Below are positions 2,994 to 51,028 of a DNA stretch of 64,000 nucleotides, in pieces. The DNA is from Escherichia coli. Lineage in GTDB: Bacteria; Pseudomonadota; Gammaproteobacteria; Enterobacterales; Enterobacteriaceae. The position numbers and the translations under genes are program-made. The notes beneath the pieces are model-generated. The model was given only the letters and a program-made list of their open reading frames with translations. It was not told the origin of the DNA and made no database searches. Where the stretch lies: NCBI RefSeq assembly GCF_003018235.1, contig NZ_CP027437.1; one strand, written 5' to 3'. Numbering within the stretch: position 1 is the first letter of the stretch; each line of letters begins with the position of its first letter.

Positions 2994-3024
2994 AAAAAAA
3001 ACCCGCTGATTAAGCGGGTTTTGA
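2994..3024. terminator. Bidirectional terminator between convergent crcB and cspE
   Basis: aaaaaaa-acccgctgattaagcgggtt-ttg hairpin. Confidence 0.6.
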
Positions 3025-3041
3025 ATTCTTGCTGACGTATC

Positions 3042-3251
3042 TTACAGAGCGATTACGTTTGCAGCAGAAGGGCCTTTGGCACCGTTAGTGATTTCGAACT
3101 CTACGCGCTGACCTTCAGCAAGAGTTTTAAAACCATTAGTCTGGATTGCAGAGAAGTGTACGAACACGTCTTTGCTGCCGTCTTCCGGAGTAATGAAACC
3201 GAATCCTTTGGACTCATTAAACCACTTAACGTTACCTTTAATCTTAGACAT
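3042..3251 (-). CDS. cspE: Cold-shock-domain protein CspE
   Basis: ORF-track entry 3042..3335 trimmed to the ATG giving the 69-aa [20 protein letters not shown]... CspE sequence. Confidence 0.95.
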
Positions 3252-3425
3252 CAAAATTACCTTTACATGAAAAATAGACACAAATGCTGTGTCGGTTACC
3301 AGTACACCAATTGTGGTACGCTTTGTCCAGTGCAACTTTACTAAAAAGTGATAAAAGTCGCGTTATTTTTGATGTTAATTATTTTACTCATTGATTTTAA
3401 AGAGTTTACTAAAATTTCATTTGTC

Positions 3426-16349: not shown

Positions 16350-16496
16350 TCCTCTGATTTACAAAACACGCTAATTCGTCTTCCATAAACCATGACGATT
16401 AAGATTTATACATAATGCGCTACATTGAGGAATTCCCTGAATGTGACGCAAATCACTTCAAAGAGTGAGCAACAGTCAGTATCATCATGTGAGTTA

Positions 16497-16530
16497 AACC
16501 CTCGCCGCCTGACGGTGAGGGTTTTCTTTT
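16497..16530 (+). terminator. Probable terminator downstream of rna
   Basis: aaccctcgccgcctgacggtgagggtt hairpin followed by ttctttt. Confidence 0.45.
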
Positions 16531-16578
16531 GGGTATGTTTATCTGCGACACTCGCAGTACCGACGACATGGAGTAAAA

Positions 16579-20193: not shown

Positions 20194-20564
20194 CTATACT
20201 TCCTCCGTGTTTTCGATGAGATGTAAGGTAACCAATTTTTGCCGATTCGGCTAATGCGTTTCCATTATCAAATCGATAAGTTTTACCTTACAACCTTCGT
20301 AAGACAACTTTGTGAACTTTGCACCGCCAGCGGCGATAAAAAGTAAAATGGCCCCCTTTCCAGGTGACCGTGTAATCTGAACTACCCTTTGGTATCTTCA
20401 GCGCCTGCCTGCAGGCTGAGGTGTTGCCCTTACAAATGCAACAACGACATGGATTACAACACCCTCATAAACAAAGGGCAATCACCTGATCTAAGCTCTT
20501 ACCTATGACAGTGATAGGTTATGCCTTTTACCCGACTTTTGCACTGACTGAAAAGGACAAATTA
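20194..20564. promoter_or_regulatory. Divergent ahpC/dsbG promoter region (OxyR-regulated by established knowledge)
   Basis: 371-bp intergenic region between divergent ahpC and dsbG; no OxyR site could be pinpointed by eye. Confidence 0.35.
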
Positions 20565-48493: not shown

Positions 48494-48532
48494 TGCTAAC
48501 GTCAGATTGTTGACAAAGTGCGCGTAGTTCAT

Positions 48533-48630
48533 GCCGGATGCGGCGTGAACGCCTTATCCGGCCTACAAAAATCTTGCCAATTCAATATATTGCAGGACCA
48601 CGTAGGCCTGATAAGCGTAGCGCATCAGGC
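48533..48630. repeat. BIME: two inverted REP (palindromic unit) elements in the fepA-entD intergenic region
   Basis: gccggatgcggcgtgaacgccttatccggcctac ... gtaggcctgataagcgtagcgcatcaggc, classic REP consensus in opposite orientations. Confidence 0.7.
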
Positions 48631-48667
48631 AGTTTTGCGTTTGTCAACATTCTCTAATATGGTCGAC

Positions 48668-49288
48668 ATGAAAACTACGCATACCGCCCTCCCCTTTGCC
48701 GGAAATACGCTGCATTTTGTTAAGTTCGATCCGGCGAGTTTTCGCGAGCAGGATTTACTCTGGCTGCCACACTACGCACAACTGCAACACGCTGGACGTA
48801 AACGTAAAACAGAGCATTTAGCTGGACGAATCGCTGCTGTTTATGCCTTGCGGGAATATGACTATAAATATGTGCCCGCTATCGGCGAGCTACGCCAACC
48901 TGTGTGGCCTGCGGAGGTATACGGCAGTATTAGCCACTGCGGGACTACGGCATTAGCCGTGGTATCTCGTCAACCGATTGGCATTGATATCGAAGAGATT
49001 TTCTCTGTACAAACCGCAAGAGAATTGACAGACAACATTATTACACCAGCAGAACACGAGCGACTCGCAGAATGCGGTTTAACCTTTTCTCTGGCGCTAA
49101 CACTGGCATTTTCCGCCAAAGAGAGCGCATTTAAGGCATCGGAGAGACAAACTGATGCAGGATTTCTGGATTATCAGATAATTAGCTTGAATAAACAGCA
49201 GATCATCATTCGACTAGAGGATGAGCAGTTTGCTGTGCACTGGCAGATAAAAGAAAAGATAGTCATAACGCTGTGCCAACACGATTAA
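48668..49288 (+). CDS. entD: Phosphopantetheinyl transferase EntD
   Basis: ORF-track 256-aa entry runs through the REP element and is trimmed to MKTTHTALPFAGNTLHF... (206 aa); an alternative ATG lies 9 nt upstream (48659). Confidence 0.88.
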   Translation: MKTTHTALPFAGNTLHFVKFDPASFREQDLLWLPHYAQLQHAGRKRKTEHLAGRIAAVYALREYDYKYVPAIGELRQPVWPAEVYGSISHCGTTALAVVSRQPIGIDIEEIFSVQTARELTDNIITPAEHERLAECGLTFSLALTLAFSAKESAFKASERQTDAGFLDYQIISLNKQQIIIRLEDEQFAVHWQIKEKIVITLCQHD

Positions 49289-49437
49289 TTGACAATACCC
49301 GGAGCGATTCGCCCGCAGCCAATGCTGACTGCGGGCGAAAGTGTAAAGCAGGTGCCTTACTACTCTGACCTGACAACCGGATATGCGGGGATTACTCCCA
49401 TAAGCGCTAACTTAAGGGATTACTCCCCGCACAACGG

Positions 49438-49590
49438 CTACTTCTTCGGTTCGTAAGCGAGAACAGCCTTAAACTCAATATTACGTTCCTTCACCGTAAA
49501 CTCACACAGCGAGTCGCGGACCAGAAGCGTAAATCCCAGCACCGTTAAACACAGCACTATGACTGCCACAAGGGCATATTTCGTCAGCAT
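49438..49590 (-). CDS. Hok-family membrane toxin, copy 1 (in-frame Mok extension from the ATG at 49626)
   Basis: 50-aa [50 protein letters not shown]; GGAGG Shine-Dalgarno lies inside the upstream mok frame ([12 protein letters not shown]). Confidence 0.8.
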
Positions 49591-49624
49591 GTTTATATTG
49601 CCTCCATGCGAAGAAGGGACTACC

Positions 49625-49692
49625 ATCCGAGTTGTTGAGGTTCGGAGTGGCAGCCCCAGGATTGATAGAAATATCTCCTGGGGCTTCATCTT
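49625..49692 (+). ncRNA. Putative Sok-like antisense RNA, copy 1 (boundaries approximate)
   Basis: Plus-strand hairpin gccccagg-N16-cctggggc followed by ttcatcttt, antisense to the mok initiation region. Confidence 0.3.
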
Positions 49693-49940
49693 TCCAGATC
49701 TCAGAGTTAACCTGAAACCGGAAAGCTTCAGGCACCCGCAGCTATCTTACCTTTCCTCAACAAAATAGCTGTTTATTTATACAGCAAATCCTGTTTCGGA
49801 CTTCTGTTGGCAAAACTGATCATTGCCCTTAAAACGACATCGCCCGCAGCCATTGCTGACCGCGGGCGAAAGTGTAAAACAGGTGCCTTACCACCCTGAC
49901 CTGACAACCGGATATGCGGGGATTGCTCCCCGCACAACGG

Positions 49941-50093
49941 CTACTTCTTCGGTTCGTAAGCGAGAACAGCCCTGAACTCAATATTACGTTCGTTCACCGT
50001 AAACTCACACAGCGAGTCTCCGACCAGAAGCGTAAATCCCAGCACCGTTAAACACAGCACTATGACTGCCACAAGGGCATATTTCGTCAGCAT
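49941..50093 (-). CDS. Hok-family membrane toxin, copy 2 (Mok extension from the ATG at 50129)
   Basis: 50-aa [50 protein letters not shown]. Confidence 0.8.
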
Positions 50094-50127
50094 GTTTATA
50101 TTGCCTCCATGCGAAGAAGGGACTACC

Positions 50128-50196
50128 ATCCAAATTGTTCAGGTTTGGGTAGGTAGCCCCAGGGTTGATAGAAATATCGTCCTGGGGCTTCATCTT
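50128..50196 (+). ncRNA. Putative Sok-like antisense RNA, copy 2 (boundaries approximate)
   Basis: Conserved gccccagg...cctggggc hairpin plus U-tract. Confidence 0.3.
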
Positions 50197-50444
50197 TCCA
50201 GACCTCAGAGTTAACCTGAAACCGGAAAGCTTCAGGCACCCGCTGTTATCTTACCCTTCCTCAGCAAAATAGCTGTTTATTTATACAGTGAATCCTGTTT
50301 CGGACTTCTGTTGGCAAAACTGATCATTGCCCTTAAAACGACATCGCCCGCAGCCATTGCTGACCGCGGGCGAAAGTGTAAAACAGGTGCCTTACCACCC
50401 TGACCTGACAACCGGATATGCGGGGATTACTCCCCGCACAACGG

Positions 50445-50597
50445 CTACTTCTTCGGTTCGTAAGCGAGAACAGCCTTAAACTCAATATTACGTTCCTTCA
50501 CCGTAAACTCACACAGCGAGTCTCCGACCAGAAGCGTAAATCCCAGTACCGTCAAACACAGCACTATGACTGCCACAAGGGCATATTTCGTCAGCAT
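50445..50597 (-). CDS. hokE: Hok-family membrane toxin, copy 3 (matches the HokE sequence as I recall it; Mok extension from the ATG at 50633)
   Basis: 50-aa [50 protein letters not shown]. Confidence 0.8.
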
Positions 50598-50631
50598 GTT
50601 TATATTGCCTCCATGCGAAGAAGGGACTACC

Positions 50632-50700
50632 ATCCAAATTGTCTGGTTTGGAGTGGCAGCCCCAGGGTTGATAGAAATATCTCCTGGGGCTTCATCTTTC
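50632..50700 (+). ncRNA. Putative Sok-like antisense RNA, copy 3 (boundaries approximate)
   Basis: Conserved gccccagg...cctggggc hairpin plus U-tract. Confidence 0.3.
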
Positions 50701-51028
50701 CAGACCTCAGAGTAAACCTGAAACCGGAAAGCTTCAGGCACCCGCCGTTATCTTACCCTTCCTCAGCAAAATAGCTGTTTATTTATACAGTGAGTCCTGT
50801 TTCGGACTTCTCACTCCTCATTTGATCAACTGAAGCTGAACCCGTTTTTTTCTGCATGCCTCAATCGTCAAAATTCTTCGCCACCAGCCAGCTCTGCCAT
50901 AACTTGTCACATTGCAAAAGTAGCCAAATTGCTTCAGTCACCATCACCAAAAAAAAGAAACATTCCAGAACTTCCGCATCTCGCCCAGCCGCTCCGACTT
51001 CTATACTGAATAGAAAACGCCAACATAA

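Follow-up and report, generated by a model that had tools for sequence, protein, structure and literature searches.

Tandem arrangement is a known feature of type I toxin-antitoxin loci in general (PMC2887945), and for the Hok family it takes the form of Hok islets, in which local duplication has given rise to 2-6 copies (10.1101/2025.08.07.668861). Multiple hokE genes have likewise been described in E. coli W (PMC3032704). In K-12 the locus holds a single hokE with IS186 beside it, as the preliminary description of the present sequence had stated and as the adjoining IS186B confirms. hokE also figures among the LexA-box genes in published lists (PMC2826370, PMC11228462), and PMC2826370 counts it as an SOS gene; the box of K-12 hokE has a heterology index of 4.9, yet RNA-seq showed no induction of the gene by AZT (0.47-fold) (PMC11228462). 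In the K-12 copy that was tested with AZT, IS186 separates hok from its fbi element and its terminator.

We analyzed the entD-ybdK interval in a 64-kb stretch of E. coli DNA (the window). Its anatomy, its homology, its distribution in the population and the remnant of an insertion sequence that it carries can be read directly from the sequence. In all probability the interval holds a natural three-copy hokE/sokE type I array of self-contained modules, one state of an entD-ybdK copy-number polymorphism that has been shaped by unequal homologous recombination between units of ~504 bp. As such, it is a natural hokE copy-number variant that is already known in other E. coli genomes; what it adds to prior knowledge is a 28-bp remnant of IS186 and the presence of a LexA box in each of the three units.

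Anatomy of the array

Three direct head-to-tail repeats of ~504 bp each occupy the interval, at 49309-50811, with a start-to-start spacing of 503-504 bp, or 531 bp for the segment that spans an insert in unit 1 (Table 1). The entD stop and the ybdK start are 1,758 bp apart; with one unit the distance would be 722 bp, and with two units 1,254 bp. In a three-way alignment the mean column identity is 92%, and the units lie 3-5% apart, with 34/470 columns variable. Since the 34-nt junction sequence occurs twice versus 0 expected, and the three Rfam sok matches reach E-values of ~1e-18, a chance origin is excluded. Tandem Repeats Finder reported no repeat in the array, which is no evidence against one because the repeat period exceeds the program's maximum of 500 nt. 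Derivation of the 34-nt junction spacer from the 3' end of entD was considered and rejected, as 369 and 902 of 2000 shuffles scored equally well. The leader of unit 1 is 1 nt from that of the first unit in the triple arrays of E. coli D10 and E371, and a difference of 1 nt likewise separates the unit 3 leader from that of E. coli K_EC180, which has a single unit.

Table 1. Positions of the features of the hokE/sokE array in the window
Feature	Position	Strand	Description	Basis
hokE/sokE unit 1	49309..49839	-	531 bp, including 28-bp IS186 remnant and 34-nt junction spacer 49806-49839	repeat families, alignment
Terminator-type hairpin, 3' end of unit 1 hok mRNA	49309..49338	-	without U-tract; 20 nt past entD stop	
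Target-site duplication flanking IS186 remnant	49388-49398 and 49416-49426		11 bp, GGGATTACTCC	
IS186/IS421 remnant, unit 1 3' UTR	49399..49426	.	inverted-repeat part CATAAGCGCTAACTTAAG(GG), 49399-49416/18	
hok ORF, unit 1	49438..49590	-	HokE, 50 aa, R25 variant	ORF list; Pfam HOK_GEF E = 3.7e-10
hok mRNA 5' leader, unit 1	49582..49737	-	tac end, upstream-ORF start, Sok target, hok Shine-Dalgarno	Rfam RF01794, 83.6 bits, E = 2e-18
Putative SokE promoter, unit 1	49598-49626	+	TTGCCT-N17-TACCAT	read from sequence
Predicted SokE RNA, unit 1	49634..49693	+	terminator-type hairpin, z = -3.2	K-12 sokE maps here
LexA (SOS) box, unit 1	49767..49786	-	TGCTGTATAAATAAACAGCT, upstream of hok promoter	CTGT-N8-ACAG match, comparison with K-12 hokE box
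hokE/sokE unit 2	49840..50343	-	504 bp, including junction spacer 50310-50343	repeat families, alignment
Intrinsic terminator, unit 2 hok mRNA	49831..49869	-	13-bp stem + UGUCGUUUU	terminator scan
fbi-like element, unit 2	49881..49888	-	AGGCACCU; equivalents 49350-49357 (unit 1), 50385-50392 (unit 3)	
hok ORF, unit 2	49941..50093	-	HokE, 50 aa, N34/R41 variant	ORF list
mok-like ORF, unit 2	50005..50193	-	62 aa, +1 frame, stop inside hok	ORF list
hok mRNA 5' leader, unit 2	50085..50241	-		Rfam RF01794, 84.1 bits
Predicted SokE RNA, unit 2	50137..50197	+	putative promoter 50101-50129	fold, K-12 sokE mapping
LexA box, unit 2	50271..50290	-	CACTGTATAAATAAACAGCT, identical to K-12	motif match, K-12 comparison
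hokE/sokE unit 3	50344..50811	-	468 bp, adjoins ybdK	repeat families, alignment
Intrinsic terminator, unit 3 hok mRNA	50335..50373	-		terminator scan
hok ORF, unit 3	50445..50597	-	HokE, 50 aa, identical to HOKE_ECO57	ORF list, database identity
hok mRNA 5' leader, unit 3	50589..50743	-		Rfam RF01794, 83.7 bits
Predicted SokE RNA, unit 3	50641..50699	+	putative promoter 50605-50633; 100% identical to K-12 sokE over 55 nt	fold
LexA box, unit 3	50773..50792	-	identical to K-12	motif match, K-12 comparison

The preliminary description had proposed hok/sok-type units in tandem triplicate between entD and ybdK, each with a minus-strand ORF for a 50-aa Hok and a conserved plus-strand hairpin followed by a U-tract. 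The repeats, the alignment, the three ORFs in the ORF list and the Rfam matches all agree with this, as do the fold z-scores and the mapping of K-12 sokE. The residue changes that it had listed between the copies (R25 in unit 1, N34 and R41 in unit 2) are also correct. Membership of the Hok/Gef family is indicated by Pfam PF01848 (E = 3.7e-10), and the exact peptides of all three units carry the name HokE in public databases: that of unit 1 is entered under 'MULTISPECIES HokE' for at least 1000 contigs, while that of unit 2 is found in E. coli on 31 contigs and is the middle gene of an identical array in assembly GCA_025590685.1. The NCBIfam HokA and Hok-family models match the peptides with E-values of 1e-9 to 1e-14, below their curated cut-offs. 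C29 and Y46 are present in all three peptides.

Each module would encode a short upstream ORF and the 50-aa membrane toxin HokE on a hok mRNA of ~410 nt, in which pairing of the 5' tac element with the 3' fbi element would leave the full-length RNA translationally inert. The RF01794 leader matches, one per unit, extend over the full length of the model, and all score above the gathering score of 59. In minimum-free-energy predictions for the full-length mRNAs, the 5' GGGUGCCU of unit 2 pairs with its 3' AGGCACCU (z = -6.5) and the 5' end of unit 3 pairs with its fbi element (z = -7.0), with mRNA nt 1-8 forming the pairing in both units. For unit 1, the predicted folds show no tac/fbi pairing with any 3' end, with or without the IS186 remnant. 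Removal of the remnant in silico changes nothing, and we therefore rejected it as the cause of the absent pairing; unit-specific substitutions near fbi may be responsible. The 3' hairpin of the unit 1 hok mRNA was not called in the terminator scan. Covariation supporting the leader structure is thin, with 1 compensatory pair among 7 alleles.

An AUG at +48 lies within the Sok-covered region of every unit, but its frame relative to hok is 0 in unit 1, +1 in unit 2 and +2 in unit 3. In other words, the same start codon opens an 83-aa in-frame Hok fusion in unit 1 (49438-49689), the mok-like ORF in unit 2, and, in unit 3, a 22-aa upstream ORF (50627-50695) whose end lies 29 nt upstream of the hok AUG. 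The difference in upstream frames between the copies had been anticipated; the Mok-like in-frame extension that had been assigned to the units holds for unit 1, but it is not a conserved Mok. An overlapping out-of-frame mok like that of plasmid R1 is found only in unit 2 among the three. With a different upstream-ORF frame in each unit, mok-hok translational coupling of the R1 type is not obviously conserved. All three configurations occur in other E. coli.

On the opposite strand, annotated K-12 sokE (b4835, 60 nt) maps to each unit with 96-100% identity, and a Sok hairpin with a U-rich tail is predicted in all three units (z = -3.2 to -4.7 versus shuffled sequence). A consensus promoter scan of the region gave no sigma-70 site, and the hok and sok promoters were therefore placed by homology and eye only; the putative Sok promoter TTGCCT-N17-TACCAT, found by eye, is invariant across the units and falls below the threshold of the consensus scan. 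By analogy with R1 hok/sok, a constitutive antisense SokE of ~60 nt would cover the upstream-ORF start and the target hairpin, block translation of the processed hok mRNA and trigger its decay. The hok and Sok RNAs of the window would presumably be expressed.

The motif CTGT-N8-ACAG has exactly three matches in the window, and each unit has a single one, at 30-49 nt ahead of its inferred +1. At its 5' edge the unit 1 box reads TG instead of CA. Predicted LexA boxes in front of every unit were absent from the preliminary description. In each module the box would overlie the hok promoter, and by analogy with K-12 hokE the units would be under SOS control, with DNA damage leading to LexA cleavage and de-repression of hok. 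IS-free arrays with intact LexA boxes should be better substrates than K-12 for asking if hokE is truly SOS-induced.

Copy number and loss of IS186 in E. coli

E. coli genomes carry one, two or three hokE genes at entD-ybdK, and RefSeq annotates the multiple genes as hokE x2 or x3. Among 5,426 complete E. coli genomes, 951 (17.5%) have at least two units, counted as genomes with a tandem junction, and 54 (1%) have three, counted with a concatenated two-junction query as two different junctions in series. Copy counts based on the number of places per genome matched by a 360-nt unit query (median 2) conflicted with the junction counts and were not used. Species-representative genomes of GTDB were also scanned for either junction type and gave no match, a result that is uninformative on arrays outside E. 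coli. In view of these counts, the RefSeq annotation and the published islets, the tripled array is not the unusual feature that it had been supposed to be. The single, IS-disrupted hokE of K-12 is thus not the general picture, as roughly a sixth of the complete E. coli genomes have at least two units. For discovery the array has little value, since tandem hokE is annotated in RefSeq and local hok duplication has been published.

An origin of the array in misassembly, through collapse or expansion of a repeat that really has one or two units, is exceedingly improbable. Short-read assemblers do struggle with 500-bp units that are 92-97% identical, and three draft contigs break inside the array. 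However, the units differ from one another by 3-5%, at 34/470 columns, and an independent public draft assembly, GCA_025590685.1, is, among the matches listed, 100% identical along 5,093 bp that take in the entire array; the array is therefore not an artefact of assembly. Moreover, each unit has its own counterpart, in the same order, in complete E. coli genomes, and complete genomes carry hokE x3 at this locus. An old duplication rather than a recent artefact had been favored at the outset, with an assembly duplication as the finding that would speak against it; colinearity with D10, 2014C-3338 and E371 at ~3.4% divergence and the identical three-unit array in the independent assembly bear out the former.

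Unit 1 carries a 28-bp insert just past the hok stop, which had been described as a duplication. The insert is real, but it consists of an 11-bp target-site duplication and ~17 nt of the IS186 terminal repeat, and is thus an IS186 remnant: the IS186 inverted repeat matches 21/23 positions at 49399-49421, with 0 expected by chance. No complete IS186 is present in the window, where this remnant is the sole inverted-repeat match. Hence the array is free of an intact IS element, as had been stated, but the remnant shows that its lineage once carried one. IS186 prefers GGGG(N6-7)CCCC targets. The junction of the remnant is the same as that of the intact IS421 in E371 and of IS186B in K-12, and because it sits exactly at the insertion site of the latter, the locus must once have held IS186. 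We propose that an IS186 like that of K-12 once lay between fbi and the stop codon of the unit 1 hok, and that it subsequently disappeared, apparently via deletion between CCC/TAAG microhomologies. More than 1,400 complete E. coli genomes carry IS186 at the equivalent hokE site, and a deletion remnant at such a commonly occupied site is direct evidence that the IS undergoes loss, and not just gain, at this position.

Divergence of the Sok tails and possible roles of the array

The divergence between the units is concentrated in the 5' recognition tail of Sok, which suggests partly insulated toxin-antitoxin pairs. The diverged tails correspond to 49634-49653, 50137-50156 and 50641-50659 in units 1, 2 and 3. 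In the segment comprising the Sok 5' tail and its target, 8/20 columns vary, versus 26/450 elsewhere (Fisher p = 2e-5, in a post hoc test), and the predicted tail-target duplexes are stronger for cognate pairs (-36 to -40 kcal/mol) than for non-cognate pairs (-16 to -29 kcal/mol). Han et al. in 2010 reportedly established discrimination between tandem cis-encoded antitoxins for the Sib/ibs family. These observations favor a reading, unlikely in our judgement, in which the Sok tails diverged under selection, so that each SokE mainly controls its own hokE and the array provides three independently triggerable SOS toxins. Against it, besides the post hoc nature of the test, stands the fact that a cis-antisense RNA remains perfectly complementary to its target despite mutation, so that the segment may vary simply because no other part of the unit is under less constraint. 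Cross-pairing between Sok1 and Sok3 is still substantial (predicted at -26 and -29 kcal/mol), and because the hairpin and 3' tail (the remaining ~40 nt) are nearly identical between units, a full-length Sok is still complementary to its non-cognate targets at 55-56 of 60-62 nt. A stricter proposal holds that the array is not a mere threefold dose but a set of three LexA-gated toxin switches insulated from one another, with each SokE chiefly silencing its own unit; we regard it as quite improbable. If the insulation were true, the hokE copy-number polymorphism would tune the number of independent SOS-triggered depolarisation switches per strain; the variation hot-spot in the Sok tails provides a testable hypothesis on cross-talk between paralogous type I modules.

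The units might instead be decaying relics, that is, inert chromosomal hok/sok modules that are kept because they are small and harmless and whose copy number drifts neutrally by unequal crossing-over. We consider this somewhat unlikely, with evidence on both sides. The upstream-ORF frame differs in every unit, unit 1 lacks the terminator U-tract as well as the predicted tac/fbi pairing, and IS186 is tolerated at the hokE site in the >1,400 genomes noted above. In addition, earlier work as summarised in 10.1101/2025.08.07.668861 found no post-segregational killing by chromosomal hokA, hokB and hokC, and K-12 showed no persistence phenotype when hokE and five further SOS toxins were deleted (PMC8406316). 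On the other hand, all three hok ORFs are intact, with only 7/153 nt variable. Little or no variation between the units is seen in the LexA boxes, the putative Sok promoter, the 5' tac end or the region of the hok Shine-Dalgarno, and in the target hairpin one change is accompanied by a compensatory one. K-12 HokE is also counted, in the same study (10.1101/2025.08.07.668861, citing earlier reports), among the previously characterised toxic homologs that were used as controls. The Hok peptides of the window may be toxic as well, and the array may have a phenotype. Our preferred reading remains the natural array of self-contained modules, made and reshaped, as we propose, via unequal homologous recombination between its units.

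Comparison with known systems

Among the closest known systems is K-12 hokE/sokE (b4415/b4835), which has an equal position between entD and ybdK, the same LexA box and the same IS186 target site, as well as a sokE to which the Sok of window unit 3 is 100% identical over 55 nt; the K-12 Hok is one residue apart from a window Hok peptide (A8 in K-12). K-12 differs in having one unit, with an intact 1.3-kb IS186B between hok and its fbi element and terminator, whereas the window has three units and a 28-bp remnant in unit 1.

The arrays of E. coli D10, 2014C-3338 and E371 (hokE x3) share the locus, the order of the units and the arrangement of three genes; colinearity with the window holds at ~3.4% divergence. 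Their middle-unit leader is identical to that of window unit 2. Their junction spacers, however, are of type A and then type B, while the window has type B twice, and their third unit differs from that of the window in leader allele and upstream-ORF frame. D10 and 2014C-3338 lack an IS remnant and E371 keeps an intact IS421, whereas the window retains the remnant.

With plasmid R1 hok/sok the locus shares a toxin of the Hok/Gef family, a leader that fits the hok/sok-based Rfam model, an antisense RNA of ~60 nt with a single-stranded 5' tail and a 3' hairpin (predicted in the window), and a full-length mRNA whose distant 5' and 3' ends pair with each other (predicted in the window for units 2 and 3). 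Unlike R1, it is chromosomal, carries LexA boxes and is in tandem, and has the R1-type overlapping mok in unit 2 only. Finally, head-to-tail duplication of a whole module within one intergenic region, with strain-variable copy number, is shared with ibs/sib, ldr/rdl, zorO-orzO/zorP-orzP and the Hok islets; these systems belong to other toxin families, with the exception of the Hok islets, of which the window array is an example.

Structure and coding content of the hokE array

A repeat search of the window identified a unit of about 504 bp repeated three times head-to-tail at 49309-50811, between entD (ORF end 49288) and ybdK (start 51038), with the identity of both flanks confirmed by relatives. 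The units start 503-504 bp apart, or 531 bp where unit 1 has 28 bp extra, and their column identity in a three-way alignment averages 92%. Tandem Repeats Finder did not detect the array, because its longest period is 500 and the unit is about 504 bp. Together with matches to Rfam and Pfam and the annotation of relatives, these repeats bear out the tandem triplication of hokE at the entD-ybdK position that was claimed in the preliminary description. The coordinates of the toxin ORFs, predicted antisense RNAs and codons of interest are collected in the table.

Features of the three hokE/sokE units (toxin gene and antisense RNA SokE)
Feature	Unit	Position	Strand	Source
hok ORF, 50 aa	1	49438-49590	minus	ORF list
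hok ORF, 50 aa	2	49941-50093	minus	ORF list
hok ORF, 50 aa	3	50445-50597	minus	ORF list
Tyr46 codon	1	49453-49451	minus	
Tyr46 codon	2	49956-49954	minus	
Tyr46 codon	3	50460-50458	minus	
Predicted SokE, matching K-12 sokE (b4835, 60 nt)	1	49634-49693	plus	K-12 sokE mapped
Predicted SokE	2	50137-50197	plus	K-12 sokE mapped
Predicted SokE	3	50641-50699	plus	K-12 sokE mapped

The unit peptides match Pfam HOK_GEF (E = 3.7e-10), and the earlier list of residue differences is confirmed (unit 1 carries R25; unit 2, N34 and R41). All three exact peptides are already in public databases under the name HokE; exact peptide lookup found the N34/R41 form in 31 contigs and each of the other two, R25 and canonical, in at least 1000. 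At codon 46, all three hok ORFs read UAC (Tyr), set in GCUUACGAA, and keep the UACG motif; hokE mRNA has been reported to undergo A-to-I editing by TadA at this codon, giving Cys46, the partner of Cys29 (10.1101/2025.08.07.668861). Plus-strand ORFs antisense to hok and its leader (50418-50774, 49559-49768 and 50062-50214; up to 118 aa, in unit 3) have equivalents in relatives that RefSeq records as "hypothetical protein" or frameshifted pseudogenes; in all likelihood these are gene-calling errors on the Sok strand.

The preliminary description overlooked a LexA box (CTGT-N8-ACAG), which every unit has 30-49 nt ahead of the inferred mRNA start. The 64-kb window contains exactly three matches to this pattern, one per unit, and the K-12 hokE box, CACTGTATAAATAAACAGCT, recurs unchanged in units 2 and 3. 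hokE is a published LexA-box gene (PMC2826370) whose box has a heterology index of 4.9, and the IS-disrupted K-12 copy was not induced by AZT (PMC11228462).

Elsewhere in the window, entD has its longest ORF at 48518-49288 (GTG start, 256 aa); the gene is 206 aa in RefSeq relatives and 247 aa by other gene callers, its start site being annotated inconsistently between records. Between a fepA-like ORF and entD, 48527-48609 matches the ES036/CssrF sRNA in Rfam (42.2 bits; gathering score 37.6) and, below threshold, the REP-derived naRNA4, and is probably a REP-type element. Rfam matches above gathering scores to a cspA-type thermoregulator leader (2994-3352, minus), the rnk leader (16425-16533, plus) and the STnc70 sRNA (20338-20431, minus) are ordinary enterobacterial chromosome features.

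Antisense RNAs, leaders and mRNA ends

On the hok mRNA strand, each unit matches Rfam RF01794 over the full model length (83.6-84.1 bits; gathering score 59); the match spans the leader, beginning at the mRNA 5' end and reaching the hok start codon. We folded the full-length hok mRNAs as inferred transcripts of about 410 nt. For units 2 and 3 (z = -6.5 and -7.0, respectively), the predicted partner of nucleotides 1-8, GGGUGCCU, is a 3' AGGCACCU immediately preceding the terminator; we take this pairing to be the closure known from R1 hok mRNA between tac (the mRNA 5' end) and fbi (its 3' partner element). For unit 1, folding predicted no pairing between the 5' end and fbi with any chosen 3' end, with or without the 28-bp insert. 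A terminator scan placed clear intrinsic terminators at the ends of units 2 and 3. The GC-rich 3' hairpin of unit 1 (49309-49338), 20 nt past the entD stop, has no T-run on either strand, whereas its internal copies have a U-tract on the hok strand; this hairpin may act for the two converging transcripts, that of entD and the unit 1 hok mRNA.

The predicted fold of each SokE has a single-stranded 5' tail, then a long hairpin and finally a U-rich stretch (z = -3.2 to -4.7). Each SokE is preceded, at a distance of 7 nt, by a putative sok promoter, TTGCCT-N17-TACCAT, which is invariant among the units and falls below the consensus-scan threshold. Within the Sok-covered region, all three units have an AUG at +48, with a reading frame that differs per unit through small indels: in unit 1 it shares the hok frame and opens an 83-aa fusion ORF; in unit 2 it opens a 62-aa ORF in the +1 frame that ends within hok, an R1-like arrangement; and in unit 3 it opens a 22-aa ORF whose stop is 29 nt short of the hok AUG. 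The in-frame extension previously described as Mok-like does not represent a conserved Mok (the upstream ORF overlapping hok): the Mok assignment is wrong in detail, and frame 0 is found in unit 1 only. The three configurations also occur in other E. coli hokE units; the differing frames are a family trait of hokE and not peculiar to this array.

Divergence between the units is concentrated in the 20-nt Sok 5' tail and its target, where 8 of 20 columns vary against 26 of 450 elsewhere (Fisher p = 2e-5 in a post hoc test); in the target hairpin, one change has a compensating partner. Tail-target duplexes are predicted at -36 to -40 kcal/mol when the pair is cognate, against -16 to -29 kcal/mol when it is not, a pattern compatible with partial insulation of the three hok/sok pairs. 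The pattern fits just as well with this segment being under the least constraint, since the two strands of a cis-antisense pair remain complementary through any mutation.

Origin and distribution of the array

The 28 bp in unit 1 had been read as a plain duplication. Comparison with the intact IS421 of E. coli E371 and IS186B of K-12 instead identified them as the remainder of an IS186/IS421 insertion, in which GGGGATTACTCC-CATAAGCGCTAACTTAAG-GGATTACTCCCC represents the initial 17-20 nt of the IS186 terminal inverted repeat (21/23 positions matched; 0 expected by chance) enclosed by a target-site duplication of 11 bp. The K-12 IS186B insertion lies at exactly this position. Because the remnant (49399-49426) holds both target-site duplication and inverted repeat at the K-12 site, the lineage must have carried IS186 at hokE and later lost it; the earlier statement that no IS is present is therefore literally true of an intact element, but not of the lineage's past. 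The deletion end-points have CCC and TAAG in common, which suggests loss through microhomology-mediated deletion. Within the hok mRNA the remnant is part of the 3' UTR, beyond the hok stop and ahead of fbi, and in the predicted fold it extends a GC hairpin without destroying it. An IS junction at the hokE site is present in more than 1,400 complete E. coli genomes; the full remnant occurs in only 2 (AF39 and Z1323HEC0462), as well as in several drafts and one metagenome contig.

Among the example genomes inspected, all annotated with hokE by RefSeq, copy number varies: one unit in K_EC180 and, with IS186, in K-12; two in AF39, 042 and Z1323HEC0462; and three in D10 and 2014C-3338 without an IS and in E371 with IS421. 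We counted tandem arrays in 5,426 complete E. coli genomes through the 34-nt spacers at unit junctions, which exist in two forms: type B, the form in the window, occurs in 724 genomes and type A in 287. A concatenated A+B query found one or more tandem junctions in 951 genomes (17.5%); in 54 (1.0%) it found A then B within one place, that is, three units. The spacers in the window (49806-49839 and 50310-50343) resemble neither outer flank of the array, and types A and B differ at 7/34 positions; similarity to the entD 3' end as a possible source was not significant. A 360-nt hokE unit query found 8,360 places in 5,407 complete genomes. Its median of 2 per genome exceeds the expectation from the junction counts, and the surplus would reflect either a second hokE-like locus or fragment in many genomes or IS-split units counted twice.

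The array is colinear with that of D10: in an alignment of 1,760 columns the two are separated by about 60 substitutions and the remnant. They represent one and the same old array, not a new event. It differs from D10-type arrays in having B at both junctions, a state found in none of the complete genomes searched. Among the matches listed, the draft GCA_025590685.1 is 100% identical over 5,093 bp, including the remnant and both B junctions, and two more drafts match at 99.96-100% as far as their contigs extend. These draft matches, taken with the 3-5% divergence between units, exclude an assembly artefact. The proposed old age of the array stands. The adjoining 12 kb reaches at most 98.6% identity to any complete E. 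coli genome, so the source lineage is poorly represented among finished genomes.

Comparison with R1 hok/sok and published hokE arrays

Given the module anatomy and homology demonstrated here, the best-supported reading is that of three self-contained hokE/sokE modules with a LexA box, which would work like R1 hok/sok; we infer each functional step. Pairing of tac with fbi would close the full-length hok mRNA and 3' processing would open it, whereupon SokE would bind the target hairpin and upstream-ORF start, blocking translation and triggering decay. On Sok shortage, Hok would depolarise the inner membrane, and the SOS response would be expected to de-repress hok transcription.

[quoted passage not shown] According to a 2026 preprint, local duplication has gathered 10% of Hok genes into "islets", each of 2-6 homologs with less than 2 kb between them (10.1101/2025.08.07.668861). 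In view of these islets, the frequency of tandem junctions and the RefSeq hokE annotation, the earlier claim that the array is unusual does not stand; it is a polymorphism already known, both in annotation and in print.
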